Below, one piece after another: positions 18,636 to 58,539 of a stretch of DNA of 64,000 nucleotides. Below the pieces are notes generated by a model. It saw only the letters and a list, made by a program, of their open reading frames with translations. It was not told the DNA's origin and did no database searches. This DNA is from a virus (taxonomy: Duplodnaviria; Caudoviricetes): IMG/VR virus record IMGVR_UViG_3300035182_002389, positions 138,519 through 202,518 of that record. One strand, written 5' to 3'. A program made the position numbers and the translations under genes. How positions within the stretch are numbered: position 1 is the stretch's first letter; every line of letters begins with the position of its first letter.

Positions 18636-18642
18636 GAGCTGC

Positions 18643-24170: not shown

Positions 24171-24275
24171 CCGCCACTCTCGCGCAAGATGCGTGCGCGA
24201 TCGATTGAGGTGGTTATGGTCTTGACTCGGTCCGAGGCATGTGCGCCTCGATGACTGTATGAAGAGATTTGTCCC

Positions 24276-24770
24276 ATGGCCGTCAAGAAGATCGCGAAAG
24301 CCTCGGAGACTCTGACCATCCAGCTCCGCCGCCACCTCGAAATCGTGAACCGGATCACCCACGAGCACACCGCTTCGGTGATTCAGACCCTTCGAGACGA
24401 AAACGACTCTCTGCGCAGGCAGATCAAGGACGATCGAAGCGAGCAGAGCGAACGGCTGCGAAATAGGGATCGGGCCATGGAGAGCATGCTCCAGTCGCTT
24501 CTCCCCATGCTCCCCATCGTCATCTCGCGCTTCTCTGGACCCTCGAACGAGTCCGGCGTCCCGCACACGGTCGCTCAGCAGGCCGTCTTCGACGTCGCCA
24601 TCTTCAAGAGCTTCCTCGGCACCATCAACGAGGAGGAGTTCAACGTGCTCATCAACACCTTCGGCGGACGCCTCGCGGGCATCATGGATCTCGCGGCTCG
24701 ATACAAGCGCGAATACGAAGAAGCCCAGGGCTTCAAGAGCGACGCAAAGAAAGACCCGACCTCTCACTGA
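24276..24770 (+). CDS. Coiled-coil protein, paralog of C-terminal half of 24825
   Basis: LQSLLPMLPIV..FKSFLGTINEEEFNVLINTFGGRLAGIMDLAARYKREYE. Confidence 0.8.
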   Translation: MAVKKIAKASETLTIQLRRHLEIVNRITHEHTASVIQTLRDENDSLRRQIKDDRSEQSERLRNRDRAMESMLQSLLPMLPIVISRFSGPSNESGVPHTVAQQAVFDVAIFKSFLGTINEEEFNVLINTFGGRLAGIMDLAARYKREYEEAQGFKSDAKKDPTSH

Positions 24771-24824
24771 CTTGGCAGACGGGGCTGGGCGAGATTTCAA
24801 CGCGAAACATCAGGAGGACGGGGC

Positions 24825-26046: not shown

Positions 26047-26159
26047 GACGCCTTAGACGTTGTGCTTGACAGCCGAAAATCATGTATCGTGGTCCTCGTG
26101 CTGAGGCCAAAGGCCTCGCCTCCTTCCAAACCCGGAAGGCAAAGAAGGGACGGCCTCTC

Positions 26160-26702
26160 ATGGCGTGGACACTCGAAGGCACCAAGAAGGCAATCGCGAC
26201 GATCACCAAGCAGCTCAAGACGGGCAAGAACAAGGCGGGCAAGAAGCTCACCGCGTCCGGCCGCATGATGCTGGAGTGCGCCCTCGTCACGCAGCAGAAC
26301 AACTTCGCGAAGCTCACGGGCCACCCGAAGGCCGCCCTCGCCGTCGGCGCCGGTAAGAAGTCGGCCAAGAAGAAGACCACGAAGAAGGCCGCGAAGAAGA
26401 AGGCCGCGAAGAAGAAGGCCGCGAAGAAGAAGGCCGCGAAGACCGTCGCCGGATCCTTCTCGGTCCCGAAGAAGACCGCGAAGAAGGCCGCGAAGAAGCG
26501 CCCGGCGAAGAAGACCGCGAAGAAGACCGCCAAGAAACGTCCGGCGAAGAAGACCGCGAAGAAGACCGCCAAGAAGCGTCCGGCGAAGAAGACCGCCAAG
26601 AAGCGTCCGGCGAAGAAGGCCGCCAAGAAACGCCCGGCGAAGAAGGCCAAGAAGAGCGCGAAGAAGACCAAGAAGAGCGCGAAGAAGTCGGCCAAGAAGT
26701 AG
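26160..26702 (+). CDS. Histone H1-like Lys/Ala-rich DNA-binding protein 1 (alternative start 26082)
   Basis: KKAAKKK, KKRPAKKTAKK repeats fill the C-terminal two-thirds. Confidence 0.8.
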   Translation: MAWTLEGTKKAIATITKQLKTGKNKAGKKLTASGRMMLECALVTQQNNFAKLTGHPKAALAVGAGKKSAKKKTTKKAAKKKAAKKKAAKKKAAKTVAGSFSVPKKTAKKAAKKRPAKKTAKKTAKKRPAKKTAKKTAKKRPAKKTAKKRPAKKAAKKRPAKKAKKSAKKTKKSAKKSAKK

Positions 26703-26746
26703 TCCAGGCCCCGCGCGTTCCACCCTCCCACGAAAGAGAGATCACG

Positions 26747-26983
26747 ATGGCGGCGAAGAAGAAGACGACGAAGAAGAGCGCGAAGAAGAGCCCCAAGCGC
26801 GCCAAGAGCGCCAAGGCGCCGCACGCTGCGAAGAAGGCCGCTGCGGCGAAGGTTCTGGAGAAGAACGGCGCGTCCAAGAAGACGATGGCCTATCTCCAGA
26901 AGATGATCGGCAAGCTCCCGGCTGCGCACTCGGTCATCATCATCGAGTCCTGGCGGCGCCCCGCGAAGAAGCGCGCGAAGTAG
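26747..26983 (+). CDS. Small basic H1-like protein 2
   Basis: MAAKKKTTKKSAKKSPKRAK.. Confidence 0.75.
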   Translation: MAAKKKTTKKSAKKSPKRAKSAKAPHAAKKAAAAKVLEKNGASKKTMAYLQKMIGKLPAAHSVIIIESWRRPAKKRAK

Positions 26984-27035
26984 CTCGCGCCCCGAAACCC
27001 TCAGAGTCTGCCCTTACCGGCGCAAGGAGACGTTC

Positions 27036-28028
27036 ATGGCTGCGAAGAAGAGTGCGAAGAAGGCGAAGAAGGCGAAGAAGCCCGCCAAGGCCCGCAAGCC
27101 CGCCAAGGCCCGCAAGCCCGTCAAGGCTCACAAGACGGCGAAGAAGACCGCGAAGGCTCGGAAGCCTGCGAAGAAGACCGCGAAGCGCTCGAAGGCCACC
27201 ATGAGCAAGCGCGACGCGCAGCTCAAGCGTCTGCTCGGCCTGCGCGCCTTCCACAAGCGTCAGGGCCACGACACGTCCGACATGGACGCGAAGCTCGCCA
27301 AGATGATGCCGGGCAAGTGGGACGAGGCGGTCACCATCGCGAAGGTCGGCAAGCCGGCGAAGGCTCGCAAGCCGAAGTCGCGCAAGCCGAAGAAGGCCGC
27401 GAAGAAGTCGGCGAAAAAGTCCCCCAAGAAGTCGGCCAAGAAGAAGGCGCACCTCGGCTACACGCCGACCGGACGCCCGAAGCAGAAGCTCGACAAGAAG
27501 AGCCGTCGCTACAAGGCGGCCGTCATCAACGTCGCGAAGGCTCGCCTCTTCCGTCACACGAAGAAGCTCGTCGACGCCGGCGTCCTCACCCCCGACGAGG
27601 GGCGCAAGCTCGCGGGCGACATCGAGCTGGACTTCAGCAAGCTCGGCGCCGACCACCCGCTCGCCAAGGAAGCGGCGGCCAAGCTCGCGGCCCAGGAAGA
27701 GGCTCGCCTCAACTCCATCGCCGCCGAAGCGAAGCGTCGTGAAGGCATCCGCACCGGCCGAGCCGCACACGGTTCCGGCCGCATGGCGACCGGCGGCAAG
27801 CGTGCTCTTCCGGCACGCCCCACGCGCCACCGCGGACCGAACGTCTCGGCGTCCTTCGGGCGCAGCGCGTCGACGGGCGTTCCGAACGTCTCCGCCGCGG
27901 CTCCCCACGGCCGTCTCATGACGAAGGCCGAGTTCGAGATCATGGACCGCAAACGTCGGGAGGCCGAGCGCCTGCCGCACTTCAAGATGGAAGGTGAGGA
28001 AAGCGAGCCCGTCACCATCCGCCGCTGA
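27036..28028 (+). CDS. H1-like protein 3 with interspersed globular segments
   Basis: AAGGAG RBS; KPAKARKP repeats; KKAAKKSAKKSPKK; Arg-rich C-terminus. Confidence 0.8.
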   Translation: MAAKKSAKKAKKAKKPAKARKPAKARKPVKAHKTAKKTAKARKPAKKTAKRSKATMSKRDAQLKRLLGLRAFHKRQGHDTSDMDAKLAKMMPGKWDEAVTIAKVGKPAKARKPKSRKPKKAAKKSAKKSPKKSAKKKAHLGYTPTGRPKQKLDKKSRRYKAAVINVAKARLFRHTKKLVDAGVLTPDEGRKLAGDIELDFSKLGADHPLAKEAAAKLAAQEEARLNSIAAEAKRREGIRTGRAAHGSGRMATGGKRALPARPTRHRGPNVSASFGRSASTGVPNVSAAAPHGRLMTKAEFEIMDRKRREAERLPHFKMEGEESEPVTIRR

Positions 28029-28047
28029 TCCAATCGGATCTCACAAC

Positions 28048-28080
28048 GCGCCCTGCTCTTCTTCTTGGAGGGCGGGGCGC
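28048..28080 (+). terminator. GC-rich hairpin after H1-like cluster (no clear U tail)
   Basis: GCGCCCTGCTCTT...GAGGGCGGGGCGC. Confidence 0.45.
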
Positions 28081-28098
28081 AGTGCTATCATCTGACGC

Positions 28099-28287
28099 AT
28101 GGACGCAGCCGATCGGCCCATCCTTGCGCGGCTCATGGATGGAACTCGTATGACCCCGAACGGCTTCTTTCTTGGCGCCGTGTCTGGCAGCGTCCTCGCC
28201 GTCCTCGGACTGCTCCTCCAACGCAAGCGCATCCTCGAACGCGAGCGAGACGTCGAAGCCTCCATCGAGGCCTCCGTTCCGCGGTGA
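28099..28287 (+). CDS. Small membrane protein, probably leaderless
   Basis: TG-C-TATCAT 7 nt before ATG; TM FFLGAVSGSVLAVLGLLLQRKR. Confidence 0.65.
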   Translation: MDAADRPILARLMDGTRMTPNGFFLGAVSGSVLAVLGLLLQRKRILERERDVEASIEASVPR

Positions 28288-28318
28288 CGTTCGATAAAGA
28301 GGTGATTAGGATGGCGAG

Positions 28319-29446
28319 ATGACCATCTTCCGCTGCGTCGCGTGCGAGGCGCTCACGCAGGTGTCGTTCCCTCACTGCCGCACGTGTGGCACGACCAACG
28401 GCTACCACAAAGCGCCGAAGGGGACACGGATGCCCAGACCCAAGCCCGAAGGCGCCGGCGGAGCGCCCGGCATGGGAGGATTCGGCGATTTTGGCGGAGG
28501 GTTTGGCGGCGTCGATGACGCGCCCCTTGACCTCGATCCGGTGGGCGGCGCTCCTGGGTTCGATCCGCCCGGACTTGGCGGACCGCCCGGCCCAACCGGC
28601 AAGAAGATCCGAAACACAGCAGGCTACGAAGAGCCCGACAAGAAGCCGCGCGCCGTATCCATCGGCCGCGTCGCCGTGCAAAAGCGAAGGCGCCTCGCGA
28701 CCGGAATCAAGCAGCTCGATCGCGTTCTCGGAGGCAGCGAGCAGAAAGGGTTCGGCATCGTCACCGGGTCCTCTGTCATGGTCGATGGAAGCCCCGGCAT
28801 CGGTAAATCCACGCTGCTCCTTCAAGCGGCTGCGAAGCTTGCGCTGCAAGGACCCGTCCTCGTCGCAACCGGCGAGGAGGCCATCGACGACATCAAAGAG
28901 CGCGCGCTGCGTCTGAAGATCCTCAAGGATCCGACGGTCCGAAAGAACCTGCTCCTCGTCGAGATGACCGACACTGACGATCTCATCGAGATCATCGAGA
29001 AGCGAAAGCCCATCGCCGTCATCATGGACTCGGTGCAGATGTTCATCTCAGAGAATGCCGTCGGTCAAGCCGGCTCCGAACCTCAGTGCAAGTACATCCT
29101 GAATGAGCTGATCAAGAAGACGACAAAGCCCATGGGCATCGCTCTCTTCATCGTCTCGCAGGTGACCAAGGACGGCGATGCGCGAGGTCCCAACACCATC
29201 GCGCACATGGTCGACGCACACCTCAAGTTCGACCGCGAGAACCCCAAGGATCTCTCCGACGTGAAGCGCCGCCTCTGGCAAAAGAAGAACCGCAACGGCA
29301 ACATCGCCATCACGGGCCGCTTCTGGATGACCGACAAGGGGCTGCGAGGTCTCAAGCACAAAGACGTTGTCGACTTCACAGCTCCGCGCAAGGAGCCGAA
29401 GATCAAAAAATCCGCGCGCGATCACGGACACAGCAAGGCGGCTTGA
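28319..29446 (+). CDS. radA: RadA/Sms-like recombination ATPase lacking the C-terminal S5/Lon-like domain
   Basis: N-terminal CxxC..CxxC finger; TGIKQLDRVLGG; Walker A GSPGIGKST; IMDSVQ; GPNTIAHMVD; KNRNG. Confidence 0.85.
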   Translation: MTIFRCVACEALTQVSFPHCRTCGTTNGYHKAPKGTRMPRPKPEGAGGAPGMGGFGDFGGGFGGVDDAPLDLDPVGGAPGFDPPGLGGPPGPTGKKIRNTAGYEEPDKKPRAVSIGRVAVQKRRRLATGIKQLDRVLGGSEQKGFGIVTGSSVMVDGSPGIGKSTLLLQAAAKLALQGPVLVATGEEAIDDIKERALRLKILKDPTVRKNLLLVEMTDTDDLIEIIEKRKPIAVIMDSVQMFISENAVGQAGSEPQCKYILNELIKKTTKPMGIALFIVSQVTKDGDARGPNTIAHMVDAHLKFDRENPKDLSDVKRRLWQKKNRNGNIAITGRFWMTDKGLRGLKHKDVVDFTAPRKEPKIKKSARDHGHSKAA

Positions 29447-29549: not shown

Positions 29550-30317
29550 ATGTCCGTCACCATCGTCAAGCCGAACGTCACGGACGACCCGCTCCCCAGC
29601 GTCGTGCCGCCGCCTGGCTACCGCCTCTTTCCCGTCGCCAACTTCTCGCCAAGCGGAAACGTTGCAGGGCAGATCGTCATCGAGGGACAGATTCTCAACG
29701 CGGCAGGTCGACCTGTCGCAAGCGGATCCACCTACGACGCAGAGCTTTTTCTCTTCGTTCAGGGACAGTGGATGCTTGCCGGTCGCCCGGTCATCAGCGC
29801 ATCGGGAGGGGACGGCCCCTCCGCGCCTTTCGGGTCGGGCGGCGGGCACAAGTCTGCTCGCTACATCAGCTTCCTGTTCGGGGGACTCATCGACGTCGTT
29901 GCGCAAGGATTTCTTCGCATCACCAACGTGCAGTCGCCCACCGAACTGGCCGGCAGCATGGTCTTCAACATCCACGCGGCCGAGCCGACGGCGACCAATC
30001 CGCGAAGCTTGTCGGGCACGCCGGAGGCTTCTCTCACGGCCCCAAGCAACTGGAGAACGCTTCCGACGTTCTCCAACACCACCGCCATCGATCCGCTCGT
30101 CACTGTTCCTACGCCCGTCGAACAGTACGTCCTTCTTCAGACCGACCCGCTGAGCCCGAGGCCTGCCTTCATTTGCAGCGCCGCGACACCTGCCGGCGAC
30201 GGATACCTGCTTCTTCAGGGTGAAGAAATCCAGTGGCCCACGCGCGATGCGAGCGAAATCTACATTCGCTCCAACGGCATTCCGACCAACGTCATCGTCC
30301 GGGCCACCAAGTTCTAG
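29550..30317 (+). CDS. Beta-rich putative virion protein, paralog of 30346
   Basis: IVKP..PGYRLFP..GQILNAAGRPV..VPTPVEQYVLLQ..IQWPTRDA. Confidence 0.75.
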   Translation: MSVTIVKPNVTDDPLPSVVPPPGYRLFPVANFSPSGNVAGQIVIEGQILNAAGRPVASGSTYDAELFLFVQGQWMLAGRPVISASGGDGPSAPFGSGGGHKSARYISFLFGGLIDVVAQGFLRITNVQSPTELAGSMVFNIHAAEPTATNPRSLSGTPEASLTAPSNWRTLPTFSNTTAIDPLVTVPTPVEQYVLLQTDPLSPRPAFICSAATPAGDGYLLLQGEEIQWPTRDASEIYIRSNGIPTNVIVRATKF

Positions 30318-30345
30318 TTCGCAGGCGACACGGGAGAAACACGAG

Positions 30346-31110
30346 ATGATCACGCCCATCGTCAAGCCCGACGTTCTGCCCGATCCGGTTCCGGGTCTTG
30401 CGCCCTCCGTTCCAGGGTATCGGCGCTTCCCTGCCTCGAACTTCGTTCCCCGAGGGGGATTCGCAAACCAGATCACCGTCGAAGGACAGATTCTCGACGC
30501 CAACAAGCAGCCCGTCGCAGGCTCCTCCTACGACGCCATCCTGTACCTGCTCATCGACGGCATTTGGCGACAGGCAGGAAAGCCCGTCACAAACATCGCG
30601 GGCGGAAGCGGGCCGCAGCCCGCGCTTGGATCGGGCAGGGGATACACGTCCGCGCGCGTCGTCAGCTTTCTTTACGGGGGCATCGTCGATGTTGCCGCCG
30701 AGGGCTACATTCAGGTCGTCAACATCGTCCCGCTCACCGGCGTCTCGATGCTCTTCAAGGTGCAGAGCCCCGAACCTTCTGCCACCGTTTCTCGAAGCCT
30801 CTCTGGCGCACCGGAGGTATCCCTCGCTCCGCCTGCGACCTGGAAGACGCTGCCCACGTTCGTGAATGCTGGCGCTCTCGGTCCTCTCGTCCCCGTTCCT
30901 ACGCCGGTCGAGCAGTACGTTCTCCTTCAAGCGGACGCTGGCAACCCGGGCCAAACCGTCATCGTTAGCCAGGGCATCGGCAGCCTCAGCCAAGGCTTCG
31001 AGCTTGCTGCTGGCAAATCTATCCAGTGGCCGACGCGCGACGCCGGCAACATCTACATCCTCACCGACCAAGCGGCGGGCGCCATCACCATCCGCGTGAC
31101 GAGGTTCTAA
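30346..31110 (+). CDS. Beta-rich putative virion protein, paralog of 29550
   Basis: IVKP..PGYRRFP..GQILDANKQPV..VPTPVEQYVLLQ..IQWPTRDA. Confidence 0.75.
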   Translation: MITPIVKPDVLPDPVPGLAPSVPGYRRFPASNFVPRGGFANQITVEGQILDANKQPVAGSSYDAILYLLIDGIWRQAGKPVTNIAGGSGPQPALGSGRGYTSARVVSFLYGGIVDVAAEGYIQVVNIVPLTGVSMLFKVQSPEPSATVSRSLSGAPEVSLAPPATWKTLPTFVNAGALGPLVPVPTPVEQYVLLQADAGNPGQTVIVSQGIGSLSQGFELAAGKSIQWPTRDAGNIYILTDQAAGAITIRVTRF

Positions 31111-31112
31111 AC

Positions 31113-32603
31113 ATGCCCGTTTCCCGATCGGCCAAACTTCCCGTCGTCGAAGCCAAAAACAAGAAGGCTCCCACGGCCTCCAATCCCGCGCTCGAACCTG
31201 CGCGAACGATTCCCCTCGCCATTGGGGGACCTCCCGTTCGCGGACCTGTCGGCGAAAAAGGTCTGGTCGGCGAGCGAGGGGCAAAAGGTCTCCTTGGCGA
31301 CAAAGGACCCAAGGGCGACGCGGGGCCTCTTGGCTCTCCCGGACCCAAGGGCACGATCGGCGACAAGGGGCCGAAAGGTCCGCTTGGCGATCCTGGGCCG
31401 ATCGGTCGGCAGGGGCCTGAAGGCGTGCAAGGCCCGAAGGGCGTTCAAGGACCCGTCGGCTCTCCAGGACCTATCGGGCCCGCGGGCAAAGAAGGGCCTA
31501 CCGGACCGAAGGGCGAGATAGGCGCTCGCGGAGACAAGGGGCCGATGGGCGACGTCGGTCCCCAAGGTCCCCTCGGCTCGCCAGGACCCAAGGGCGACAA
31601 GGGGCCGGCCGGCGACAGGGGGGCGGTCGGGGACAAAGGGCTGATCGGCGACAAGGGGCCGATCGGTGACAAGGGGCCGGTCGGTGACAGGGGGGCGGTC
31701 GGGGACAAAGGGCCGATCGGCGACAAGGGGCCGATCGGTGACAAGGGGCCGGTCGGTGACAAGGGGCCGGTCGGCGAGCAAGGTCCGCAAGGTCCGCAAG
31801 GTCTCCGAGGCGAGCAGGGCCCTCTCGGCGACGGGGGGCCGATCGGGGACAGGGGGCCGATCGGGGACAAGGGCGCCACCGGCGACCAAGGCTCCACCAT
31901 CCTGTTTCCCGCGACGCGACGAGCCTTCCAGGGCGCTTCGCACGTCTACTACCTCGACGAGTCTGCGCTGCCGCTCAAGAACGCCGCAGGGCCCGACGGC
32001 ATTCTCACCTCCGACGAGCCGAAGGGGCTCATCTTCCGCGACACGTCCCTCTTCAACCGAGGGACGCCGGCGCTGCGCATCCAAGGGCGCACCCCTTCAC
32101 AGGGTGTCTACTCGACCGACGTCAACGCAGACGTGAGCCGTGGCGCCACACTCGAAGTCGTCTTCGAGCCGAGCGAGATGACCCCCGACGTTCGGTGGAT
32201 CGCCGAGCTGATCGGCGTCATCCCCCAGGGCGGCAAGCTCAACGCGTTGTCCATCGCGTTTTTCCCGAACACCCTGCGAGCCCAAGTCATCCTCGGAGGC
32301 GTCAGCGGCGAACACGCGCAGTTCACCGCCAGCGTCCCCTGGACCAACGGACGACGCACGGTGTTTGCGCTCAGGTTCGACCCCGCTCGCGGTACGCTCG
32401 ACGCCATCCTCAACGGATTCGTCGAGTCCTCTGTCGCGACCCGTGGAATCATCGAGGTCCCGCTCTCTCAAATCGCCATCGGGCGCGCCATCAACAAGAG
32501 CGCGGCCTCGTGGAAGGGCACCATTTCCGAGGTCCGCTTGACCCCGTTTGCACAACCTGACGAATACTTCGTCGAAGGAGTGCGCGCGATGGGCTTGCTG
32601 TAG
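31113..32603 (+). CDS. Collagen-like fibre protein with C-terminal LamG/ConA-like head
   Basis: 73 uninterrupted Gly-X-Y triplets (31242-31898); C-terminal TLEVVF..WTNGRRTVFALRFD..LNG..IAIG..KGTISEVRL. Confidence 0.85.
   Translation: MPVSRSAKLPVVEAKNKKAPTASNPALEPARTIPLAIGGPPVRGPVGEKGLVGERGAKGLLGDKGPKGDAGPLGSPGPKGTIGDKGPKGPLGDPGPIGRQGPEGVQGPKGVQGPVGSPGPIGPAGKEGPTGPKGEIGARGDKGPMGDVGPQGPLGSPGPKGDKGPAGDRGAVGDKGLIGDKGPIGDKGPVGDRGAVGDKGPIGDKGPIGDKGPVGDKGPVGEQGPQGPQGLRGEQGPLGDGGPIGDRGPIGDKGATGDQGSTILFPATRRAFQGASHVYYLDESALPLKNAAGPDGILTSDEPKGLIFRDTSLFNRGTPALRIQGRTPSQGVYSTDVNADVSRGATLEVVFEPSEMTPDVRWIAELIGVIPQGGKLNALSIAFFPNTLRAQVILGGVSGEHAQFTASVPWTNGRRTVFALRFDPARGTLDAILNGFVESSVATRGIIEVPLSQIAIGRAINKSAASWKGTISEVRLTPFAQPDEYFVEGVRAMGLL
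31242..31898 (+). repeat. Collagen Gly-X-Y coding repeat including 18-bp GDK-GP(I/V) units
   Basis: 657 nt = 73 triplets counted in the translation. Confidence 0.9.
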
Positions 32604-32617
32604 TGCGACAAGGGTCC

Positions 32618-32632
32618 GGCTTATGATAAGCC
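32618..32632. promoter_or_regulatory. Palindromic operator GGCTT-ATGAT-AAGCC
   Basis: Intergenic, upstream of 32670. Confidence 0.75.
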
Positions 32633-32669
32633 TGCCATCCACAGACCTTCGACCACACGCAGGTACGTG

Positions 32670-33254
32670 ATGTCGCACTCGCCCGTTCTCTACTGTGTGT
32701 CCTTCCCCAACGCAGCGGCGTTGTCGACGGCGCACGGGCGCTTCAACGACGGCGACTTCGGGTACGTGAAGTCGACGGCGATCTACTACACCTACTTCGA
32801 GATTCCGCCGGGAGTGCCACCCCCCGGCACCATCTTCAGCGTCGAAGGCGGCGCCTGGGTTCCGTTCTCGGGAGGCGGACCTCCGCCTCCTGCGACCACC
32901 GCCTACGTCGAAGAGTCCTTCACCTGCGACCCATCTGTCCTCGTTCGAGACGTCGTCTTCATCAGCCCGCTCGGCATCGTGGATCGAGCCAGCGCCGCGA
33001 CTCTCGGAACGACCGCCGCCGTCGGCGTGGTGTCTGCAAAACCTGCGGGCAACATCGCCACCGTGCGTTACACCGGCGCGCTTTCAGGATTCGCAGGGCT
33101 AAACCCTGGACAGGTGTACTATCTTGGCGTCAGTCCAGGCGCATTGCTCTCGACCCCAACGGATGCGCCGGGGTACGTTGTTCAGAAGATCGGCGTCGCT
33201 CTCGACGCGATCACCCTCATGATCAGTGTCGGGCCGAACACCACCGTTCTCTGA
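32670..33254 (+). CDS. Putative virion protein: shared N-terminal module plus cement-like C-terminal domain
   Basis: MSHSPV..AALSTAHGRFNDGDFGYV; AVGVV..TVRYTGAL..GLNPGQVYYL..VVQKIGVA (DUF2190-like, from memory). Confidence 0.65.
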   Translation: MSHSPVLYCVSFPNAAALSTAHGRFNDGDFGYVKSTAIYYTYFEIPPGVPPPGTIFSVEGGAWVPFSGGGPPPPATTAYVEESFTCDPSVLVRDVVFISPLGIVDRASAATLGTTAAVGVVSAKPAGNIATVRYTGALSGFAGLNPGQVYYLGVSPGALLSTPTDAPGYVVQKIGVALDAITLMISVGPNTTVL

Positions 33255-33269
33255 TCCCACGGAGTTCTC

Positions 33270-33494
33270 ATGGCGCGATTCAAGTACCTTGGACCGAACC
33301 CGCCGCCCAAAGGCGTCGTTTGGGGACCGCTCACCAAGATCGGCCTCATCACCAAGATGCAGGGCGTGGTGAGCTACCTTCCCGTCCCTCCGAACACCGA
33401 GTTCGTGATCGGCGAAGACATCGGGTACGACATCACCGACCAGTTCTCCCTTCAAGCGCTCGACGCCGACCCTCGCTACCAGCGGATCGTCTGA
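33270..33494 (+). CDS. Hypothetical protein (74 aa) in structural module
   Basis: GGAG RBS; co-oriented. Confidence 0.65.
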   Translation: MARFKYLGPNPPPKGVVWGPLTKIGLITKMQGVVSYLPVPPNTEFVIGEDIGYDITDQFSLQALDADPRYQRIV

Positions 33495-33522
33495 TTCCGC
33501 AGCCGTCTGAAAGGAATCGATC

Positions 33523-35703
33523 ATGTCCGCACAGCTCAAAGCACTCACGATTCAAAGCGGCGTCACCCAGCGCATTGGGTCGACGTCCAGCCTCGAAGTC
33601 GGCAACGGCATCAACTCGACGTCGGGCAACAACCTCGCCATCACGGGCGGCGCCGCCGCCGACAGCATCAGCATCGGTTCGACGACGACCAGCGGATCGA
33701 TCAGCATCGGCGGAACAGTCACCACCGGCACGATCAACATCGGTGACGCGTCGGTCGCCGGTCTGAACATCAACATCGGCACCAACATGGGGGCGCCGGG
33801 AACGATCACGATCGGCACCGCAGGCCAAGGCACCGTTCAGTTTCCCGGCGTCGTGAACTTCACGTCGGCGACCGCCTCCCCGGACGTCTCGTTCACCGGC
33901 AACGTGCAGATCGGCAGCAACCCGTACGACGGCGACCAGCTCTCGATCTACTCGCACGTCACGACCAGCATCACGTTCGATGGTGCGGGCGCGCACAGCG
34001 TCCTCCAGTTCGCGAGCGCGACCGGCCAGAACCTCACCTTCGCAGGCGGTCAGGGCACCGCCGGTGCTGGCGGGCAAGCAATCTTCGTCGGCGGCGCAGG
34101 TACGACCACAGGCGGTCTTGCCTCGGTCACCGGCGGCGCAGGTGCAGGCGGTCTCGGCGGTGGAGCGTCCCTCATCGGCGGCCTCGGCTCGACCACCGGC
34201 GGCGCAGTCACCGTCACCGGCGGCGCCGGCACGGCGACTGCGGGCGGCGCGGTCAACATCACGAGCGGCAACGGCGCCACGGCAGCCGGCGACGTCACGC
34301 TCGGAGTCGGCACCGGCGGCACCGGCACGATCACCATCGGCGGAACCAACCCGACCACGACCACGATCGGTCTGTCGAGCGTGTCGAGCCTCCTCGACCT
34401 GCTCTCGATCATCATCACGCCGACCGTCCACTTCCTCAAGGAAGTCAACCACACGCTCCTCGTCGACCCGTCGACCACGGGCGGCGCTGCTGGCGGCAAC
34501 TTCACCTCGCAGGCGGGTGCGGCCGAAGCTGCCGGCGCCGGCACGGGCGGCGTCATCCGCCAAACGGCTGGCGCGGGCGGGGATACTGGCATCGGCGGCG
34601 CGGCGTTCGTCACTGGCGGCGCCGGCGGCGCAACCAGCGGGGCGGGCGGAGCGGTCACCTTCACAGGCGGCGCTGCCACCAGCGGCGCGGGCGGGGCTTC
34701 GTCCCTCGTCGGCGGCGCAGGCGGCACGGCTGGAGCTGGCGGCGCGACCTTCGTAACTGGAGGTGTCGCAGGCGTCACGGGCATCGGCGGCGCAACCAAC
34801 ATCGCCGGCGGACTCGGCGGCGCAACCAGCGGCAACGGCGGCGCGGTCAACCTGACCGGCGGCGCAGCGGCAACGGAAGGCGTCGGCGGCTTCGTCACCA
34901 TCGCAGGCGGCGCGGCAGCGACTGCTACCTCGCAGAACGGAGGCAACGTCGCCATCAACGGCGGCGCGCTCGCCGGCGGCGGCACCAACGGTCTGGTCCT
35001 CATCGGCCAGGCGAACACCTCCGCGATCAACCTGTACGCGAACACCACCGCACAGGCAGGCGTCGCTATCGGGGCTACGGGCACCGGCTACATCAACCTG
35101 CCGAACAACACAGCGCCCAGCACGGTGTTCTTCAGGATTGGTGGGACCGCCGTCGGAACTGGCGCCGCAGGCGCAAATATCACGGCTGCGAACTTCGACG
35201 TCCTATTCGCGGGCCCGACCTCGGACGCCTCGAACCTCCACACCCACACGAGCCTCTCGGCCGCAGTGACCATCCCGGTCAAGGCCGGTGAAGCCATCGT
35301 TGCCGTCGGCTCGCCGATCTTCACGAAGTTCTCGACGACATCGCGAGGCTTCAACATCGACGAAACCAACAATGTGGGAGCCCGCGGCGCTGCCGCAGGC
35401 AACGCCATTGGTCTCGCAGCGACACTGCCGGCACCGAACGCGGCAGGCAACAACTTCAACGTGCAGGTCGCCGGAGAGCTGACCGTTGCCGACGCCGTCT
35501 TCGTAACCGCTCCGGTCGCGGCCACGGACACGGGCAACGTCATCTGGGGCGCCAAGACCAGCGGCAAGCTCACCATGGACGTCTCGGCCTTCGTTGCCGG
35601 CGACGTCGTGCAGAAGATGGGCATCCTCGGCGCCAGCCAGGGGCCCGGCACCCCGAACGCCAACGTCGTGGTCGTGCAGATCGGCGACGTCGTCCTGCTC
35701 TGA
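33523..35703 (+). CDS. Gly/Thr-rich fibre/spike protein with GGAVxxTGGAG repeats
   Basis: Two blocks of ~13-16 aa repeats; C-terminal domain similar to 32670 C-terminus (AIGLA..VQVAGEL..VVQKMGIL). Confidence 0.75.
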   Translation: MSAQLKALTIQSGVTQRIGSTSSLEVGNGINSTSGNNLAITGGAAADSISIGSTTTSGSISIGGTVTTGTINIGDASVAGLNINIGTNMGAPGTITIGTAGQGTVQFPGVVNFTSATASPDVSFTGNVQIGSNPYDGDQLSIYSHVTTSITFDGAGAHSVLQFASATGQNLTFAGGQGTAGAGGQAIFVGGAGTTTGGLASVTGGAGAGGLGGGASLIGGLGSTTGGAVTVTGGAGTATAGGAVNITSGNGATAAGDVTLGVGTGGTGTITIGGTNPTTTTIGLSSVSSLLDLLSIIITPTVHFLKEVNHTLLVDPSTTGGAAGGNFTSQAGAAEAAGAGTGGVIRQTAGAGGDTGIGGAAFVTGGAGGATSGAGGAVTFTGGAATSGAGGASSLVGGAGGTAGAGGATFVTGGVAGVTGIGGATNIAGGLGGATSGNGGAVNLTGGAAATEGVGGFVTIAGGAAATATSQNGGNVAINGGALAGGGTNGLVLIGQANTSAINLYANTTAQAGVAIGATGTGYINLPNNTAPSTVFFRIGGTAVGTGAAGANITAANFDVLFAGPTSDASNLHTHTSLSAAVTIPVKAGEAIVAVGSPIFTKFSTTSRGFNIDETNNVGARGAAAGNAIGLAATLPAPNAAGNNFNVQVAGELTVADAVFVTAPVAATDTGNVIWGAKTSGKLTMDVSAFVAGDVVQKMGILGASQGPGTPNANVVVVQIGDVVLL

Positions 35704-52950: not shown

Positions 52951-53376
52951 ATGCCCTGCCCCAACCCGAGCTGCCCGTACGCAAACGACCCAAGCCACTT
53001 CTGCCCATGCTCCTCGGCTGCTGTCGGTAGGGGCGGCGGGGGAGGGGGCGGAGGACATGGAGGCGGCGGAGGAGGCCATGGAGGCGGCGGAGGCGGCGGA
53101 GGCCACGGCGGCGGAGGGCATGGCGGAGGTGGAGGCCGCGGGTGGGGCGGCGGAGGGTGGGGAAACTACGGGCTGAGGCCCAGGCCGCACGGGTACTACG
53201 GCTGGTACGCAAACGGATACTGGTGGCCGGGCTGGTGGGACTACCCGAACGAGCTGAACGATACGAGCAGCCTCCTCGCACTCGCCAGAGCCTTGCAGAA
53301 CGGCGCCATCACAGGCGCGCAGGTGCGAGCCATGGGGATCAGCCCCAACGCCCTCATCGCCATCCTCAGCCCGTAG
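52951..53376 (+). CDS. Cys-rich leader, Gly/His-rich and Trp/Tyr-rich protein
   Basis: MPCPNPSC..AAVG, GHGGGGG repeats, YYGWYANGYWWPGWW, C-terminal ALQNGAITGAQVRAMGISP. Confidence 0.7.
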   Translation: MPCPNPSCPYANDPSHFCPCSSAAVGRGGGGGGGGHGGGGGGHGGGGGGGGHGGGGHGGGGGRGWGGGGWGNYGLRPRPHGYYGWYANGYWWPGWWDYPNELNDTSSLLALARALQNGAITGAQVRAMGISPNALIAILSP

Positions 53377-53385
53377 CGGCTCGCC

Positions 53386-53400
53386 GACTTACCGCAAGCC
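53386..53400. promoter_or_regulatory. Palindromic operator GACTT-ACCGC-AAGCC
   Basis: Intergenic, 18 nt before ATG 53419; same spacer as copy at 1446. Confidence 0.75.
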
Positions 53401-53418
53401 CGCCAGAGTCCAAAGAGC

Positions 53419-53868
53419 ATGATCCTCTTCTCATACGGCTCCAATCACCCGGCCCAGCTCGCTGAAAGGCTTGGCCGCGCCATCAAGAGGACATGGCCGG
53501 CATTTTTGCCGGGACACGAACGAGTGTTTCGAGGGCGGTCCGTGCGGTGGAACGGAGGCGTCGCGAGCCTCAAAGCACATCCGAAGGCCACGACCTACGG
53601 GTACGCCGCCGAAGTCAACCGCGCAGACATCGAAAAGCTCGACGTTTACGAAGGGATTGCCCAAGGCAAGTACAAGCGCGTCGAACTGCCCATCGTCATC
53701 GAGGTGCACGGCGCTCACAAGGAGACGCTCGCATCGCTCTACGTCAGCACCAGCGAAGAGTTCAACGCGCCGAGCAGGGAATACCTCGACGCCGTGGCGA
53801 AGACCATCGCGTCTTTCTGGGTCGGATCTAAGGGTACGATCACGCGCAAAGACATCCCCATCCGCTGA
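53419..53868 (+). CDS. Gamma-glutamylcyclotransferase (GGCT/AIG2-like) family protein
   Basis: LFSYGSN, GVASL, KLDVYEG, YKRV, PSREYL. Confidence 0.85.
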   Translation: MILFSYGSNHPAQLAERLGRAIKRTWPAFLPGHERVFRGRSVRWNGGVASLKAHPKATTYGYAAEVNRADIEKLDVYEGIAQGKYKRVELPIVIEVHGAHKETLASLYVSTSEEFNAPSREYLDAVAKTIASFWVGSKGTITRKDIPIR

Positions 53869-53876
53869 GGAGTCCG

Positions 53877-54188
53877 ATGGCCGCCAAAAAAGCGAAGAAG
53901 TGGTCGAAAAAGATCAAGACGTCCTGGGAACCGCCGGAGGGTCTTTTCAAGCAAGACCCGAAGACGATCGCGTACGCGGTCGCGTCCGATTCCAAGGACT
54001 TGCGGCAAGCCGTCCAGAGGATCCAGTTCTACGTGAACCGCGCCGGATCGAATCTGTCCACCGAGCGCAAGCGTACAATGGACAGGGCCAAGGACTACGT
54101 TCGGTTCCTCTTCGACAACCCGTCCTCGCTCGCGCAAGTGCGACGTTCGTCGATCGCCCCATCCTCCACCTTCCTGTCCCTCGCTTGA
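53877..54188 (+). CDS. DUF3175-like protein
   Basis: KKWS..EGLFKQDPKTIA..QFYVNRAGSNL..RAKD pattern (from memory). Confidence 0.65.
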   Translation: MAAKKAKKWSKKIKTSWEPPEGLFKQDPKTIAYAVASDSKDLRQAVQRIQFYVNRAGSNLSTERKRTMDRAKDYVRFLFDNPSSLAQVRRSSIAPSSTFLSLA

Positions 54189-54198
54189 CGAGAACCCC

Positions 54199-54396
54199 AT
54201 GAAGGCTACGAGCTGGTTCTTTCTTGGTGGCGGAGCCCTCGCCGTCACCTACCTCGTCCTCCGATCTCGGGAAGAGGCCGCCAAGAGCCAAATCGCGAAC
54301 ATTCAGGCGCCGATTCAGACCGTAGAGCCGAAGACGTCTTCCGACGTTCTCAACCAAGGCCCGCCGCCAAGCGATGTTCGGCGAACCTCTACCTAG
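54199..54396 (+). CDS. Small N-anchored membrane protein
   Basis: WFFLGGGALAVTYLVLRSR. Confidence 0.7.
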   Translation: MKATSWFFLGGGALAVTYLVLRSREEAAKSQIANIQAPIQTVEPKTSSDVLNQGPPPSDVRRTST

Positions 54397-54435
54397 CCAG
54401 ACGGCACGATCTTCATCTAACCTTCGACGAGGACC

Positions 54436-55119
54436 ATGAACAACACGTCGCGCGAGTGGGTCATCACCTTCCAAAAAGGAGCCAAGAGCGAGCCGGTCCA
54501 GCTCGTTCGATTGTCTGCCACGAGCGCCGACATCGCGAAGAAGACGTTCCTGTCGCTCGTCCCTCATGCGAAGGTCTACAACGTAGGTCTCGGCATCGGC
54601 GACGAGAGGATTCCACGCATCGACCAGATCCTCGACGCTTCGGAGCTTTCCTCCGCGGCGAAGAAGAACACGCCCCGGAGAAGCACCATGCCCAAGGCAA
54701 AGAAGGCCGCGAAGAAGAGCACGAAGAAGGCCGCGAAGAAGAGCGCGAAGAAGCGCCCGGCCAAGAAGCACGTGGCCAAGAAGGTCGCCAAGAAGCACAC
54801 GGCGAAGAAGCACACGGCGAAGAAGACCGCCAAGAAGCGTGCACCGAAGAAGGCTGCCAAGAAGCGTGCGCCGAAGAAGGCCGCCAAGAAGCACGCGCCG
54901 AAGAAGGCCGCCAAGAAGCACGCGCCGAAGAAGGCCGCCAAGAAGCACGCGCCGAAGAAGGCCGCCAAGAAGACCGCCAAGAAGTCGGCGAAGAAGTCGC
55001 CGGCCGATCGCGTCGCACGCCGCAAAAAGTGGAACGCGTTCCAGAAGTCGCACGCGGGCAAGGGCCTCACCAAGAAGCAGCTCGGCGAGAAGTTCAAGAA
55101 GGCCCACCCGGAGAAGTGA
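54436..55119 (+). CDS. Histone H1-like protein 4 with N-terminal globular domain; second in-frame start at 54688
   Basis: GAGGA RBS; KKAAKK repeats; GGAG 7 nt before internal ATG (MPKAKKAAKK). Confidence 0.8.
   Translation: MNNTSREWVITFQKGAKSEPVQLVRLSATSADIAKKTFLSLVPHAKVYNVGLGIGDERIPRIDQILDASELSSAAKKNTPRRSTMPKAKKAAKKSTKKAAKKSAKKRPAKKHVAKKVAKKHTAKKHTAKKTAKKRAPKKAAKKRAPKKAAKKHAPKKAAKKHAPKKAAKKHAPKKAAKKTAKKSAKKSPADRVARRKKWNAFQKSHAGKGLTKKQLGEKFKKAHPEK
54844..54972 (+). repeat. Five 27-bp units encoding PKKAAKK(R/H)A
   Basis: Units start 54844, 54871, 54898, 54925, 54952. Confidence 0.9.
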
Positions 55120-55140
55120 TCTCCGAGGTCGGCATCGACC

Positions 55141-55173
55141 GGGAGCGCGGAGACGTCGTCTCCGCGCACTCCC
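55141..55173 (+). terminator. Strong hairpin after H1-like gene 4
   Basis: GGGAG-CGCGGAGAC-GTC-GTCTCCGCG-CA-CTCCC; weak U tail. Confidence 0.5.
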
Positions 55174-55202
55174 GCCTTCAACATTTACGCTAGGAGGCGG
55201 AC

Positions 55203-55592
55203 ATGAACACCGTCGAGCATCTTCACCTGCTCATCTCCAACGACGCGGTCCTGTACCGCAGCCGCGTTCTTCCCATTCAAAAGAACCTTGCGAACCGTAT
55301 GGCGAAGGGCGAGTACGACCCCGCCAAGGCCGCGATTCTCTTCCGCTACCTCGTCGACGAAGCTGCGAAGAAATACCAGTCCATCGTCGGCCGTCTGAGT
55401 GGACGCGAGCGCAACCAAGTCGCCGAAATGTTCGAGAGAAGCTTCCGCGCTGAATGGTCGCTCGGCAACCACCGCGAAAGCCTCAGCAAAATGGCCGCGA
55501 CCTCGCTCGGAAACCAAGAGACGTCGCTGCCCACGACCTCCCTCGACGACACGTCCATCTCGATTCGACCACGACGGTCAAGTCTCCGCTAA
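55203..55592 (+). CDS. Phage-type hypothetical protein
   Basis: AGGAGG RBS; LISND..LY..PIQKNL..KGEYDPAKA..Y..DEAAKKY pattern seen in phage proteins (from memory). Confidence 0.7.
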   Translation: MNTVEHLHLLISNDAVLYRSRVLPIQKNLANRMAKGEYDPAKAAILFRYLVDEAAKKYQSIVGRLSGRERNQVAEMFERSFRAEWSLGNHRESLSKMAATSLGNQETSLPTTSLDDTSISIRPRRSSLR

Positions 55593-55611
55593 CACAAACT
55601 CAACGTGCCAA

Positions 55612-55626
55612 GGCTTACGGTAAGCC
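55612..55626. promoter_or_regulatory. Palindromic operator GGCTT-ACGGT-AAGCC followed by TG-A-TAGGAT (55640-55645)
   Basis: -10 lies 9 nt before ATG 55655. Confidence 0.78.
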
Positions 55627-55654
55627 CCGACGCCCGTGATAGGATCAAGACACC

Positions 55655-55930
55655 ATGTTCGACTACAACCCGCACGTCTTCACCGGAGCCGAAACGACCG
55701 CCACGGGCCCGACGCAGCCCGGTCTCACCACGCCTCCGGGCACGCCCCCGTCGACGTTCTTCAGCGACAACAAATACTACATCATCGGCGGCGTGGCCGT
55801 CGTCGGCGTGGCCGCGTACATGCTGATGGCCAAGAAGGGCGACAAATCCATCTCGGGCTCCGACTCCAGCGTCGGCGGCTACCATCGCGACAGCTACGCC
55901 GGCATCCAGCACGCCGCCCGTCGACGCTAG
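55655..55930 (+). CDS. Small membrane protein
   Basis: YYIIGGVAVVGVAAYMLMAKK. Confidence 0.75.
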   Translation: MFDYNPHVFTGAETTATGPTQPGLTTPPGTPPSTFFSDNKYYIIGGVAVVGVAAYMLMAKKGDKSISGSDSSVGGYHRDSYAGIQHAARRR

Positions 55931-55939
55931 AAGGCCTCG

Positions 55940-56293
55940 ATGAGCGCATGCACGCACAGTCTCCGGGTTCGTAAGAACCGATTCGGACGCGGCATCTACG
56001 CGAAGCGCGACTACGCGCGGGGAGAGACCATCGAGGTCTCCCCCGCGGTCATCGTCAAGAAACGCGACATTCGCGACGACGATCGCCTCGCCGACTACGC
56101 GTTCGAGTGGGCGCGCGGAAAGTACGCCATCGCGCTCGGCTACGGATCGCTCTTCAACCACTCCGAAGAACACCAGAACGCCACGTGGCGCAATGATCTC
56201 GCCCACAACCGCCTCGTCTTCTACGCCATCCGGCCGATCAAGAGAGGGCAGGAAATCTTCACGAACTACGGGTACGACCCGGCGAGACGCTGA
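55940..56293 (+). CDS. Minimal SET-domain lysine methyltransferase
   Basis: GRGIYAKRD..GETIE; GYGSLFNHS; AIRPIKRGQEIFTNYG. Confidence 0.9.
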   Translation: MSACTHSLRVRKNRFGRGIYAKRDYARGETIEVSPAVIVKKRDIRDDDRLADYAFEWARGKYAIALGYGSLFNHSEEHQNATWRNDLAHNRLVFYAIRPIKRGQEIFTNYGYDPARR

Positions 56294-56301
56294 GGAGACC
56301 G

Positions 56302-56526
56302 ATGACGCGTAAGCATGCCATGAAACACAGCGCGGCCAGCATCGCGACGAGCGCCGATCTCGACCCCGATGATCGTCTCGGCATCGAGCTGAGCCACGCC
56401 ATCATGCGCGTCCTCTCTCAACACTCACGCGTCGGGCAAGCTCACGCCGATCGCGTCTCGCGAGCCGCCTCTCGATACGTCCTCAAATCGCTCAAAGAAG
56501 CGGGCAAGTCCTCCGTCCCGTTCTGA
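56302..56526 (+). CDS. Hypothetical protein (74 aa)
   Basis: GAGGAG RBS. Confidence 0.65.
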   Translation: MTRKHAMKHSAASIATSADLDPDDRLGIELSHAIMRVLSQHSRVGQAHADRVSRAASRYVLKSLKEAGKSSVPF

Positions 56527-56533
56527 GGTCAGC

Positions 56534-57136
56534 ATGGCGTCCAGGAAGTTCAACGCGAAAGAAGCCAGGAGCATCGGAACGTCGATCGGCGTCGACTTCC
56601 AGAAGTTCAGCCTCGACGAGTTCCGAAAGGGTCTCAGCGCGGAGCTGGAACACAAGGACGTCACCAAGGGCAATCTCTCCATCACCGGCAAGATCGCGAT
56701 GGCCCACCTACGCGAAATGCCGGACTACTACACGAAGCTCGATCTCATGGAACGAGGGGCGTGCTGCCCTTGCTCGCCGCTCCACAAAAAGCTCCAGCGC
56801 ATCGAAAAGAAAACCGGCTCCGCGCCGAAGACAAGCTCAAAAAAGCATGTCGCACCAGCAGCCGTCGCACGCGTTGCTCGACGCGCTCTCGAATGGCGGC
56901 GTGAGTTCAAGCGCGGAGGAACCGCCATCGGCGTGCGTCGAGCTGTGCAGCTTGCGGACCGACAAAACTTGTCGGACGACACCGTTCGGCGCATGAAGGC
57001 GTACTTCGCCAGACATGCCGTAGACAAGAAGGCCAAAGGGTTTCGGGAAGGCGAACAAGGATTCCCTTCCGCCGGCCGCGTTGCGTGGGACCTGTGGGGA
57101 GGCGATCTCGGGCGTACGTGGGTACGGGGGCTTTGA
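56534..57136 (+). CDS. DUF5661-like domain fused to a phage-associated RGGT..YFARH..AWDLWGGD domain
   Basis: EFRKGLSAELEH..GKIAMAHLREMPDYYTKL; LSDDTVRRMKAYFARH..PSAGRVAWDLWGGD. Confidence 0.7.
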   Translation: MASRKFNAKEARSIGTSIGVDFQKFSLDEFRKGLSAELEHKDVTKGNLSITGKIAMAHLREMPDYYTKLDLMERGACCPCSPLHKKLQRIEKKTGSAPKTSSKKHVAPAAVARVARRALEWRREFKRGGTAIGVRRAVQLADRQNLSDDTVRRMKAYFARHAVDKKAKGFREGEQGFPSAGRVAWDLWGGDLGRTWVRGL

Positions 57137-57153
57137 GGCCGGCCCAGGACCCC

Positions 57154-58281
57154 TCAACGAATCGACGACGAAGGACGTGAAAGGAAATACGCCACGGCCG
57201 CACCGGCGAGCATTGCTCCGCCGGCCATGAGGACCTTCGTCGACGTCGATGTCGAGGCTCCACCGCCGGCATCCATGACGAAAGGTTCGGGGTCAGGGCC
57301 CTGCACGTAGTCTGTGCGACCTTCGACGCCCGGCGGGTTTGACGCCGGATCGGGGATCGCCACGCCGTCGGAACCCGTCACGTAGCTCACTCTCTTCGCT
57401 CCGCTCGTCCCCGACATGGGAGGGGGCATCAGCGTCTTCTTCGACCCGTTGTTGAGCACCGGCAGAGCGTTCGTTCCCGCGTTGGGGAACCGAGGGTTGA
57501 ACGGCCCGTCGTCCGAAACGAGCACGTGCAGCTTCGGATGCAAGCACACCTCGTCGAACGAAAACGGAACGCCGTTGACCGACACCTGCCAATAGACGAG
57601 GTCGCAACCGTGCGAGTAGTCCTCGTAACCAGCTTCGTGAAATGACCAGTCCCACGGCTGGATCTGCGAGCCGTTCGGCCAAAACCAGCCACCGAACGCC
57701 ATGTTCTTGCCGTCCAGGTTCGGCCTCGTGATGTACGCCTTCTTCGTTCGCGTGAACGCGCTGTAGTTCGCGCCGAAGATGACGCCGGCCTTCGCGAGAG
57801 CTTCGTTGACCCGCTCGTTCTCTTTCGCAATGACCGACGTTGCGAGCCCAGGATGGCAAATGCCGAGAGGATTCTTCTCGGTCTTCTCACAGGGCCTGGA
57901 GAGGGCCTGCGGATCGATTTTGAACGACGTCGACTGCCACGTGTTCTTCACGATCTTCTTCGACGGAATGTAGAACTTCGAGGTTCGGTCCGTTGGATCT
58001 GAAGCGCTCACGAGCATTCGAGCGTCGCAAAACGATTGCAGACTTGGCTGTATGAGCGGCCATCGAACGAAGTCCTCGTTCGTGCCGATCGACAAGTAGT
58101 CGGGCGGCGTTAGGTACGTCAGCTCGTAGTCACCTCCGTCGATGACCGCAGACGTTCGGCACGTCTGAAGATGCTCCATGAACTCCGGCGTATTGCCGGC
58201 GAGCATCGTGGAGAGCGCAAGCGCATCGCGCTTCGGATCGCTCATGTCCCAGACAAGCTTCAGGAACTCGGAGCCCTTCAT
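57154..58281 (-). CDS. Membrane-anchored HxxxYxDYSHGC protein, paralog of 21859
   Basis: MLAGNTPE, YLSIGTNED, KKAYIT, HEAGYEDYSHGCD, VCLHPKLHVLVSD; TM LMAGGAMLAGAAVAYFLSR; TG-G-TAGGCT 7 nt upstream. Confidence 0.8.
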   Translation of the reverse strand: MKGSEFLKLVWDMSDPKRDALALSTMLAGNTPEFMEHLQTCRTSAVIDGGDYELTYLTPPDYLSIGTNEDFVRWPLIQPSLQSFCDARMLVSASDPTDRTSKFYIPSKKIVKNTWQSTSFKIDPQALSRPCEKTEKNPLGICHPGLATSVIAKENERVNEALAKAGVIFGANYSAFTRTKKAYITRPNLDGKNMAFGGWFWPNGSQIQPWDWSFHEAGYEDYSHGCDLVYWQVSVNGVPFSFDEVCLHPKLHVLVSDDGPFNPRFPNAGTNALPVLNNGSKKTLMPPPMSGTSGAKRVSYVTGSDGVAIPDPASNPPGVEGRTDYVQGPDPEPFVMDAGGGASTSTSTKVLMAGGAMLAGAAVAYFLSRPSSSIR

Positions 58282-58317
58282 GAAAGGGAGCCTACCACCG
58301 ACGCTGGATGTAGAAAA

Positions 58318-58539
58318 TCATGCGCGCAGACGCTGGATCGCTTTCACAACACCGACCACGATCATGTCCGCGTCATCCACAGAGAAAGACACAGAACCGA
58401 TTCTGGACCACTCCTCGGAGGACGCTGCACGACGCTCCTCTACGAGAACCACCTCACGACGGTCAGCGTCGACGACGACAGAAACGCGATCTTCAGCGCC
58501 CACCACCGTCGCCACCCTGCACGACGAGCGATCCGTCAT
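58318..58539 (-). CDS. Hypothetical protein (73 aa)
   Basis: AGGAGG RBS on - strand. Confidence 0.6.
   Translation of the reverse strand: MTDRSSCRVATVVGAEDRVSVVVDADRREVVLVEERRAASSEEWSRIGSVSFSVDDADMIVVGVVKAIQRLRA

Follow-up and report, generated by a model that had tools for sequence, protein, structure and literature searches.

The SET-domain gene considered here lies in a 64,000-nucleotide stretch of DNA, hereafter the window, which forms the last 64 kb of the 202,518-bp linear IMG/VR virus record IMGVR_UViG_3300035182_002389 (coordinates prefixed with G000 refer to the whole record). The open reading frame (ORF) at 55940-56293, on the plus strand, encodes a 117-amino acid (aa) protein which, on the basis of sequence comparisons and structural modeling, is almost certainly an intact protein-lysine methyltransferase made up of a minimal SET domain, with the structural type of vSET and Set7. 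From its distribution, the gene is very probably an accessory, non-core gene of this virus. By analogy with characterized enzymes, we favor, with somewhat less than even confidence, the reading that it codes for an acquired accessory methyltransferase aimed at a widely available basic protein, probably one from the host. The initial annotation had proposed a coupled chromatin system in which the enzyme would modify H1-like proteins of the virus itself. As a conserved system, this proposal is not supported: SET is missing from the relatives of the virus, lysine-rich genes are not enriched around SET genes, the genes concerned sit in separate units, and searches of the genome returned neither a reader nor an eraser of methyl-lysine.

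Sequence and fold of the SET protein

The assignment is carried by Pfam, by a phmmer search of the PDB, by a multiple alignment and by an AlphaFold2 (AF2) model compared with known structures using Foldseek. The Pfam SET profile (PF00856) matches the protein with an E-value of 1.6e-14 and a score of 54.6 bits (cut-off 22.4), covering profile positions 1-105 of 105. The domain spans residues 16-111 of 117 and is the only one in the protein, which carries no accessory domains; the whole-genome search, in which it scored 54.3 bits, identified it as the product of the sole SET gene of the 202.5-kb record. Among solved structures, the best sequence matches were Set7 from S. pombe (5h6z, E 9e-17) and vSET (1n3j, E 3e-11). 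In a 30-member alignment gathering the SET protein and 29 homologues, residues were kept at 17 of the 17 invariant columns, which include G16-R17-G18, Y53, N73-H74-S75 within an L-G-Y-G-S-L-F-N-H-S block, and Y110. The GxG motif, which binds S-adenosylmethionine (SAM), and the N-H-S motif align with those of vSET and Set7. The catalytic tyrosine, Y110, is found in a C-terminal E-x-x-x-x-Y motif and aligns with the SYG tyrosine of vSET, while Y53 corresponds to the lysine-channel tyrosine. With this Pfam match and all invariant residues in place, the identification of a 117-aa SET protein made in the initial annotation is upheld.

The AF2 model built on the 30-member alignment reached a predicted local distance difference test (pLDDT) score of 84. 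Its best PDB match in Foldseek was vSET (3kma_A), with a template modeling (TM) score of 0.79 by query and 0.87 by target and 30% identity, followed by Set7 (TM 0.83/0.79) and then by the catalytic domains of MLL and SET8. In total, 348 PDB matches were obtained at E<=0.001, and the 50 matches listed were all SET-domain proteins. The likeness to the minimal SET enzyme of chloroviruses claimed at the outset is therefore found in the sequence as well as in the fold.

This viral enzyme, vSET (A612L from Paramecium bursaria chlorella virus 1; 1n3j/3kma), is likewise a single-domain SET protein, with ~119 aa, from a DNA virus of large size, and its GxG, NHS and catalytic tyrosine motifs align with those of the window protein. 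It differs in that it belongs to a eukaryote-infecting virus and methylates K27 of histone H3, whereas the host of the window virus would be a bacterium without H3. In addition, the window protein has a shorter C-terminus. Set7, the best sequence match and second-best fold match, is a 169-aa cellular histone methyltransferase from a eukaryote, with no viral context. The closest cellular homologues are chromosomal proteins of 124-126 aa from Bacillales, which exhibit 37-50% identity and the same motifs; the window protein does not belong to the Bacillota clade and does not have their SPLWF tail.

In SET methyltransferases, a C-terminal flanking segment (post-SET or aromatic tail) completes the channel for cofactor and lysine. 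The window protein stops 7 residues past Y110, without the aromatic SPLWF tail of nearly all aligned relatives, and for this reason its activity could be weak or need a partner. Such a short C-terminus, along with the fact that the only close homologue is that of a sister strain, would fit a decaying or non-catalytic remnant, either functionless or retained as a binding module. We consider this improbable, since all the invariant catalytic and SAM-binding residues are kept, the model is confident and a few other aligned relatives, such as P0057, end equally short. Evidence from the sister strain points the same way. Its contig, L283, which was obtained from another sample, shares 91.9% DNA identity with the window over 1.08 kb and 96.9% over the SET gene alone, the two SET genes differing by 6 synonymous and 4 conservative changes. 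As the gene order is the same in both strains (membrane protein, SET, 74-aa protein), the changes in SET are conservative only and the flanks are less conserved than SET itself, the gene is maintained.

Distribution of the SET gene and the viral core

The virus record has a GC content of 65% and an estimated completeness of 94% according to CheckV. Peptidoglycan-binding, SLT and GH25 lysozyme domains, together with strong PHROG matches, point to a bacterium as host; the PHROG matches include phrog_2426 (8e-152, in an 800-aa protein), an RtcB ligase and a helicase. No tail genes were recognized in the 202-kb virus.

Relatives of this virus were not readily found. Single-protein scans of IMG/VR with SET, the neighboring 375-aa protein, the core ATPase and the 800-aa phrog_2426 protein returned none, and alignment-based scans of the same database with the ATPase and with the 375-aa family yielded nothing beyond distant ATPases. 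A full HMMER search with the protein of 375 aa (57154-58281, minus strand; 1070 representatives at E<=0.001), which is one of three paralogues, led to the relatives through its 10 closest homologues, 43-59% identical, and one further relative, L275, came from a metagenome scan. Six smaller related viruses, A to F, were thereby available as contigs of 6-39 kb with 58-67% GC, of which ~65% (A), 97% (B), 88% (C), 74% (D) and 100% (E and F) were read, for a total of 174 kb. Each of them has 5-21 genes in common with the 202-kb virus, in conserved order. This shared core consists, in this order, of homologues of window 23757-25733, a protein of the 375-aa family, one or several Lys/Ala-rich proteins, a KaiC-fold ATPase and homologues of 29550-35703. 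The KaiC/RecA-fold ATPase of the window (28319-29446, plus strand; Pfam KaiC-type ATPase at E 4e-11, AAA_25) is 54-66% identical to its counterparts in relatives A, B and F, the values for C, D and E being 27-40%.

The slot preceding the ATPase is occupied by Lys-rich proteins in all five relatives covered at this position, namely A, B, D, E and, weakly, C. Because this is the same slot as that filled by three such proteins in the window, the Lys/Ala-rich proteins are, from gene content, a core trait of the viral lineage, always encoded near the KaiC-fold ATPase (window 26082-29446; L252:11476-14259; L255:2665-5566; L276:11520-14280; L279:8192-12110). Such a position would suit proteins which act on the viral genome or in its packaging. 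A Lys-rich extension of ~95 aa is also present at the N-terminus of the ATPase of relative A.

The SET gene follows a different pattern. A profile derived from the SET alignment and run with the --max option at E<=10 on the 174 kb read did not retrieve SET in any of the six relatives, while the same profile scored the SET protein of the window at 3e-42. The initial annotation had named a lack of co-occurrence of SET and H1-like genes in related genomes as a result which would refute its proposal, and this is what the portions read show: among the relatives, Lys-rich proteins occur in 5 of the 5 covered and SET in 0 of 6.

SET genes are also rare beyond this lineage. An alignment scan of IMG/VR recovered at least 107 SET-encoding contigs, many of them above 100 kb and some assigned to giant-virus bins, which corresponds to ~107 SET-bearing contigs out of 2.9 million. 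In deposited phage genomes, a single distant tblastn match to SET was obtained in 50,697 records, and no experimental study of a phage SET enzyme was found in the literature. When 80 SET-bearing IMG/VR loci were compared with this virus, each had at most one gene besides SET in common with it. The accessory status of the gene derives from this result and from the lack of SET in relatives which share the syntenic core. In a tree of SET proteins, the base of which is not resolved, the window protein does not group with the Bacillota clade but with viral rows whose branching is likewise unresolved. Together with the distribution, this placement underlies the reading of the gene as acquired horizontally by this one large virus. 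A weak pairing with a protein from a metagenome-assembled genome of Halobacteriovoraceae (87/59) was discarded as unreliable; the locus of the latter shares nothing else with the virus.

The 375-aa family deserves a separate mention. Its members, of ~370 aa, contain invariant D-Y-S-H-G-C-D and C-x-H-P motifs and have no Pfam name. Three paralogues are encoded by the 202-kb virus, at window 57154-58281 (minus strand), window 21859-22974 (plus strand) and G000 18457-19578 (plus strand), and a single copy, located in the core beside the Lys-rich genes, is present in the smaller relatives.

Gene units and lysine-rich proteins

SET is the second of four genes which form a unit on the plus strand, with gaps of only 7-9 nt. 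The first gene (55655-55930) codes for a 91-aa single-pass membrane protein, recognized by its hydrophobic helix and also present in L283, and its stop lies 9 nt ahead of the SET start. The third gene (56302-56526), which begins 8 nt past the SET stop with a GAGGAG resembling a ribosome-binding site before its ATG, encodes a 74-aa protein which is kept in L283 and for which no Pfam or PHROG family match was obtained. The last gene (56534-57136) codes for a 200-aa protein matching DUF5661 in its N-terminal part (Pfam, E 5.8e-17) and phrog_2859 in its C-terminal domain (E 8e-29). This C-terminal domain is widespread in phages, its half of the protein having more than 596 IMG/VR matches in unrelated phages.

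Such a compact arrangement, whose order is kept in the sister strain and which is located at the end of the particle-building region, raises the prospect that SET modifies virion or assembly proteins, for example capsid components or what the other three genes of the unit encode (the membrane protein of 91 aa, the 74-aa protein and the DUF5661 protein). The unrelated contig L124 (6262-7558), which is giant-virus-like, encodes a SET protein whose N-terminus bears a Lys/Ser-rich repeat tail, next to DUF5661 and to a SWIB-domain protein with VAKR repeats, and in L157 a DUF5661 homologue lies 8 kb from SET. These are, however, only 2 of 61 SET lineages, hundreds of phages lacking SET possess the C-terminal domain found in the DUF5661 protein, and we know of no precedent for a SET enzyme acting on viral capsid or membrane proteins. 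A target of this kind is therefore considered unlikely.

Upstream of the unit, 29 nt ahead of its first gene, is a 15-bp copy (55612-55626) of the palindrome GRCTT-N5-AAGYC, which is virus-wide. The window contains 18 copies of this palindrome, from 1446 to 60006, compared with 0.22 expected, and most of them are found 20-50 nt upstream of gene starts. The palindrome marks off gene units. Promoter and terminator scans of window 53000-58500 gave no informative call. The initial annotation had placed SET beside an H1-like gene, ~0.8 kb downstream. The distance is correct, since 821 bp separate the end of this gene, K4, from the SET start; the adjacency is not, as a 129-aa gene, the palindrome at 55612 and the membrane-protein gene intervene, and the palindrome separates the K4 unit from the SET unit. 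The 129-aa protein (55203-55592, plus strand) was called as an ORF with high GC content at third codon positions and has a 41% identical homologue in relative C, where neither SET nor a K4-like gene lies beside it. Two genes past this homologue, relative C encodes a dual-specificity phosphatase (DSPc; L277:19984-20457); no DSPc match was obtained in the 202-kb virus. The K4 unit is headed by a gamma-glutamyl cyclotransferase-like (AIG2/GGACT) gene and by a DUF3175 gene with a Lys-rich N-terminus (window 53419-54188).

Four Lys-rich proteins had been reported in the window and are indeed present, all on the plus strand and all recognized by their Lys/Ala-rich composition: K1 (26082-26702), K2 (26747-26983) and K3 (27036-28028), which are tandem genes directly upstream of the core ATPase, and K4 (54436-55119). 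Two further proteins of this type, completing the set K1-K6, are encoded outside the window (G000 65556-66506 and G000 126658-127758). K4, of 227 aa, contains 64 Lys, 19 AKK and 7 A[RK]K[ST] sites, and consists of a small N-terminal domain, (A/P/T)AKK repeats extending over ~110 aa and a short motif at the C-terminus. The "hundreds" of AKK/KKA sites mentioned initially were overestimated, K1-K4 containing 75 of them along with 216 Lys.

The term H1-like can be retained for composition only. All six proteins possess the long Lys/Ala/Pro-rich repeat tail typical of the H1 C-terminus, and all contain 40-aa segments with 14-20 Lys and no more than one acidic residue, which were found at none of 80 control viral loci. 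By contrast, neither Linker_histone (PF00538) nor Hc1 (PF07432) was detected in the whole-genome search or in the six proteins, which is why the resemblance is limited to that of an H1 tail. K1-K6 have no Pfam match at E<=0.1 and no PHROG match, and their non-repeat parts are mutually unrelated. For residues 1-88 of K4, no homologue was detected and the ESM Atlas neighbors were only small uncharacterized phage proteins, while the N-terminal segment of K1 matches a 163-aa protein of relative E (E 2e-4). A motif, W-x-x-F-x-K-x-H-x-G ... L ... Y/F-K/R, is found at the edge of the Lys tract in the K4 C-terminus (window 55030-55119) and in relatives A and B (L252:11966-12556 and L276:11520-12530), the matches being weak (E 0.02-0.1 in a tiny database); from its sequence, it may represent a small shared DNA-binding module. 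Large aquatic "moraphages" are reported to encode Hc1-type histone H1-like proteins proposed to compact the phage genome (PMC12619734). These match Pfam Hc1, unlike K1-K6, and no SET is mentioned in that report.

These proteins are the substrates of the alternative closest to the initial annotation, in which SET would methylate K1-K6 and tune the condensation or release of the viral genome, as an optional layer present in the 202-kb virus only. We judge this possible but doubtful. Several observations argue for it and accordingly weigh against a host target. Besides the proximity of K4, the six proteins together offer 335 Lys and 28 A[RK]K[ST] sites, which resemble the ARKS context of H3K9 and H3K27, whereas the rest of the called proteome has 7 such sites; 28 of the ~35 sites of the viral proteome are thus concentrated in these six proteins. 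The same palindrome precedes K1 (copy at 26032), the K4-containing unit (copy at 53386) and the SET unit, and SET and the Lys-rich genes may hence be co-expressed; the palindrome-headed units may even form one large regulon, though at least 15 other units carry the palindrome too. In an AT-rich phage lineage (L104:2282-4652 and L114:1155-3175), SET is followed in one gene string by three very basic proteins of 75, 98 and 366 aa, the last one with long K-P-K repeats; this is the sole other lineage in which SET and very basic genes look linked. The contigs of relatives A-F, only 65-100% read, are maybe not complete genomes. Finally, all the characterized small SET enzymes from prokaryotes and viruses act on basic DNA-binding proteins (PMC3980110): cpnSET, paired with Hc1/Hc2 in Chlamydophila pneumoniae, methylates Hc1, Go1-SET methylates MC1-alpha of Methanosarcina mazei and BaSET from Bacillus anthracis is reported to trimethylate lysines of histone H1. 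Published precedents thus exist, a prokaryotic SET enzyme acting on the basic, DNA-compacting proteins of its own organism being the functional model first proposed for this locus. The cpnSET and Go1-SET pairs are however encoded by cellular genomes, and the candidates in the window have no Hc1 domain and form with SET a pair which is not conserved in relatives.

Other observations argue against it. The relatives keep their Lys-rich proteins beside the ATPase and show no SET, two genes separate K4 from SET and the units to which they belong are different, and the 129-aa homologue of relative C has neither of the two as neighbor. Across the other SET-bearing viral lineages (61), Lys-rich neighbors of SET are no commoner than chance, with one exception, the L104/L114 lineage. 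In 59 dereplicated lineages, the gene richest in Lys was located 1.5 kb or less from SET in 16 cases, compared with 17.1 expected, and H1-tail-like Lys tracts occur within 10 kb of SET at 3 of 80 loci versus 0 of 80 controls, drawn from matches to the common C-terminal domain of the DUF5661 protein (Fisher one-sided p 0.12). Furthermore, neither Chromo domains, which read methyl-lysine, nor JmjC domains, which erase it, were found in the whole-genome search. Methylation also leaves the positive charge of lysine in place, as known from general biochemistry, whereas acetylation neutralizes the lysine charge of basic proteins. GNAT acetyltransferases above the Pfam cut-off are encoded at G000 104232-104711 (minus strand) and 79418-79843 (plus strand), with weaker matches at ~107.3 and ~109.1 kb.

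The initial annotation further included a minimal kinase, through which phosphorylation would contribute to the control of condensation. The ORF concerned (6794-7315, plus strand; 173 aa) has no Pfam match at E<=0.1, no Pkinase match was obtained in the genome, and its sole homologue is a 97% identical sister copy. Its AF2 model, computed from the single sequence, was too poor for a structure search (pLDDT 47). Only its ESM Atlas neighbors, which include PF27024 Phage_T7_kinase clusters (feature score 0.97) and Pkinase models (TM 0.54-0.70), point to small phage kinases. It may thus be a small phage protein kinase, which makes it a lead. Kinases of the T7 gp0.7 type act on host proteins. The phosphorylation arm of the model depends on this putative kinase, of which such proteins are the nearest named family.

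Candidate target and significance

A host protein is the target we consider most plausible, by analogy and from the distribution of SET, with a confidence which stays a little short of even. In this reading of SET as an acquired methyltransferase, the enzyme would use SAM to methylate lysines of a protein which is not specific to this viral lineage, the likeliest candidate being a basic protein which is abundant in the host, for instance one associated with the nucleoid or with ribosomes. The IMG/VR contigs with SET, at least 107 in number, differ widely in size and GC content, which argues for a substrate that is widely available. The enzyme would be produced along with late gene products and may be brought into the cell by the particle, in the manner of vSET. 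The latter, a functional homodimer, is carried inside virions and targets the chromatin of the host, and the late-type gene neighborhood of the window SET is compatible with such packaging.

Eukaryotes rely mainly on SET enzymes to write histone lysine methylation. In the window virus, a giant member of a probably tailless lineage, there is a small chance that an acquired SET enzyme methylates the H1-tail-like core proteins of that lineage. If true, a bacterial virus would mark the chromatin which it packages in a way that resembles a rudimentary histone code. Since the Lys-rich proteins are a core trait which needs no SET, any link with SET would be a late and optional addition rather than a conserved chromatin system. 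The nature of the SET target, be it in the host nucleoid or translation machinery or among the viral DNA-coating proteins, would show whether lysine methylation is a tool of phage takeover.

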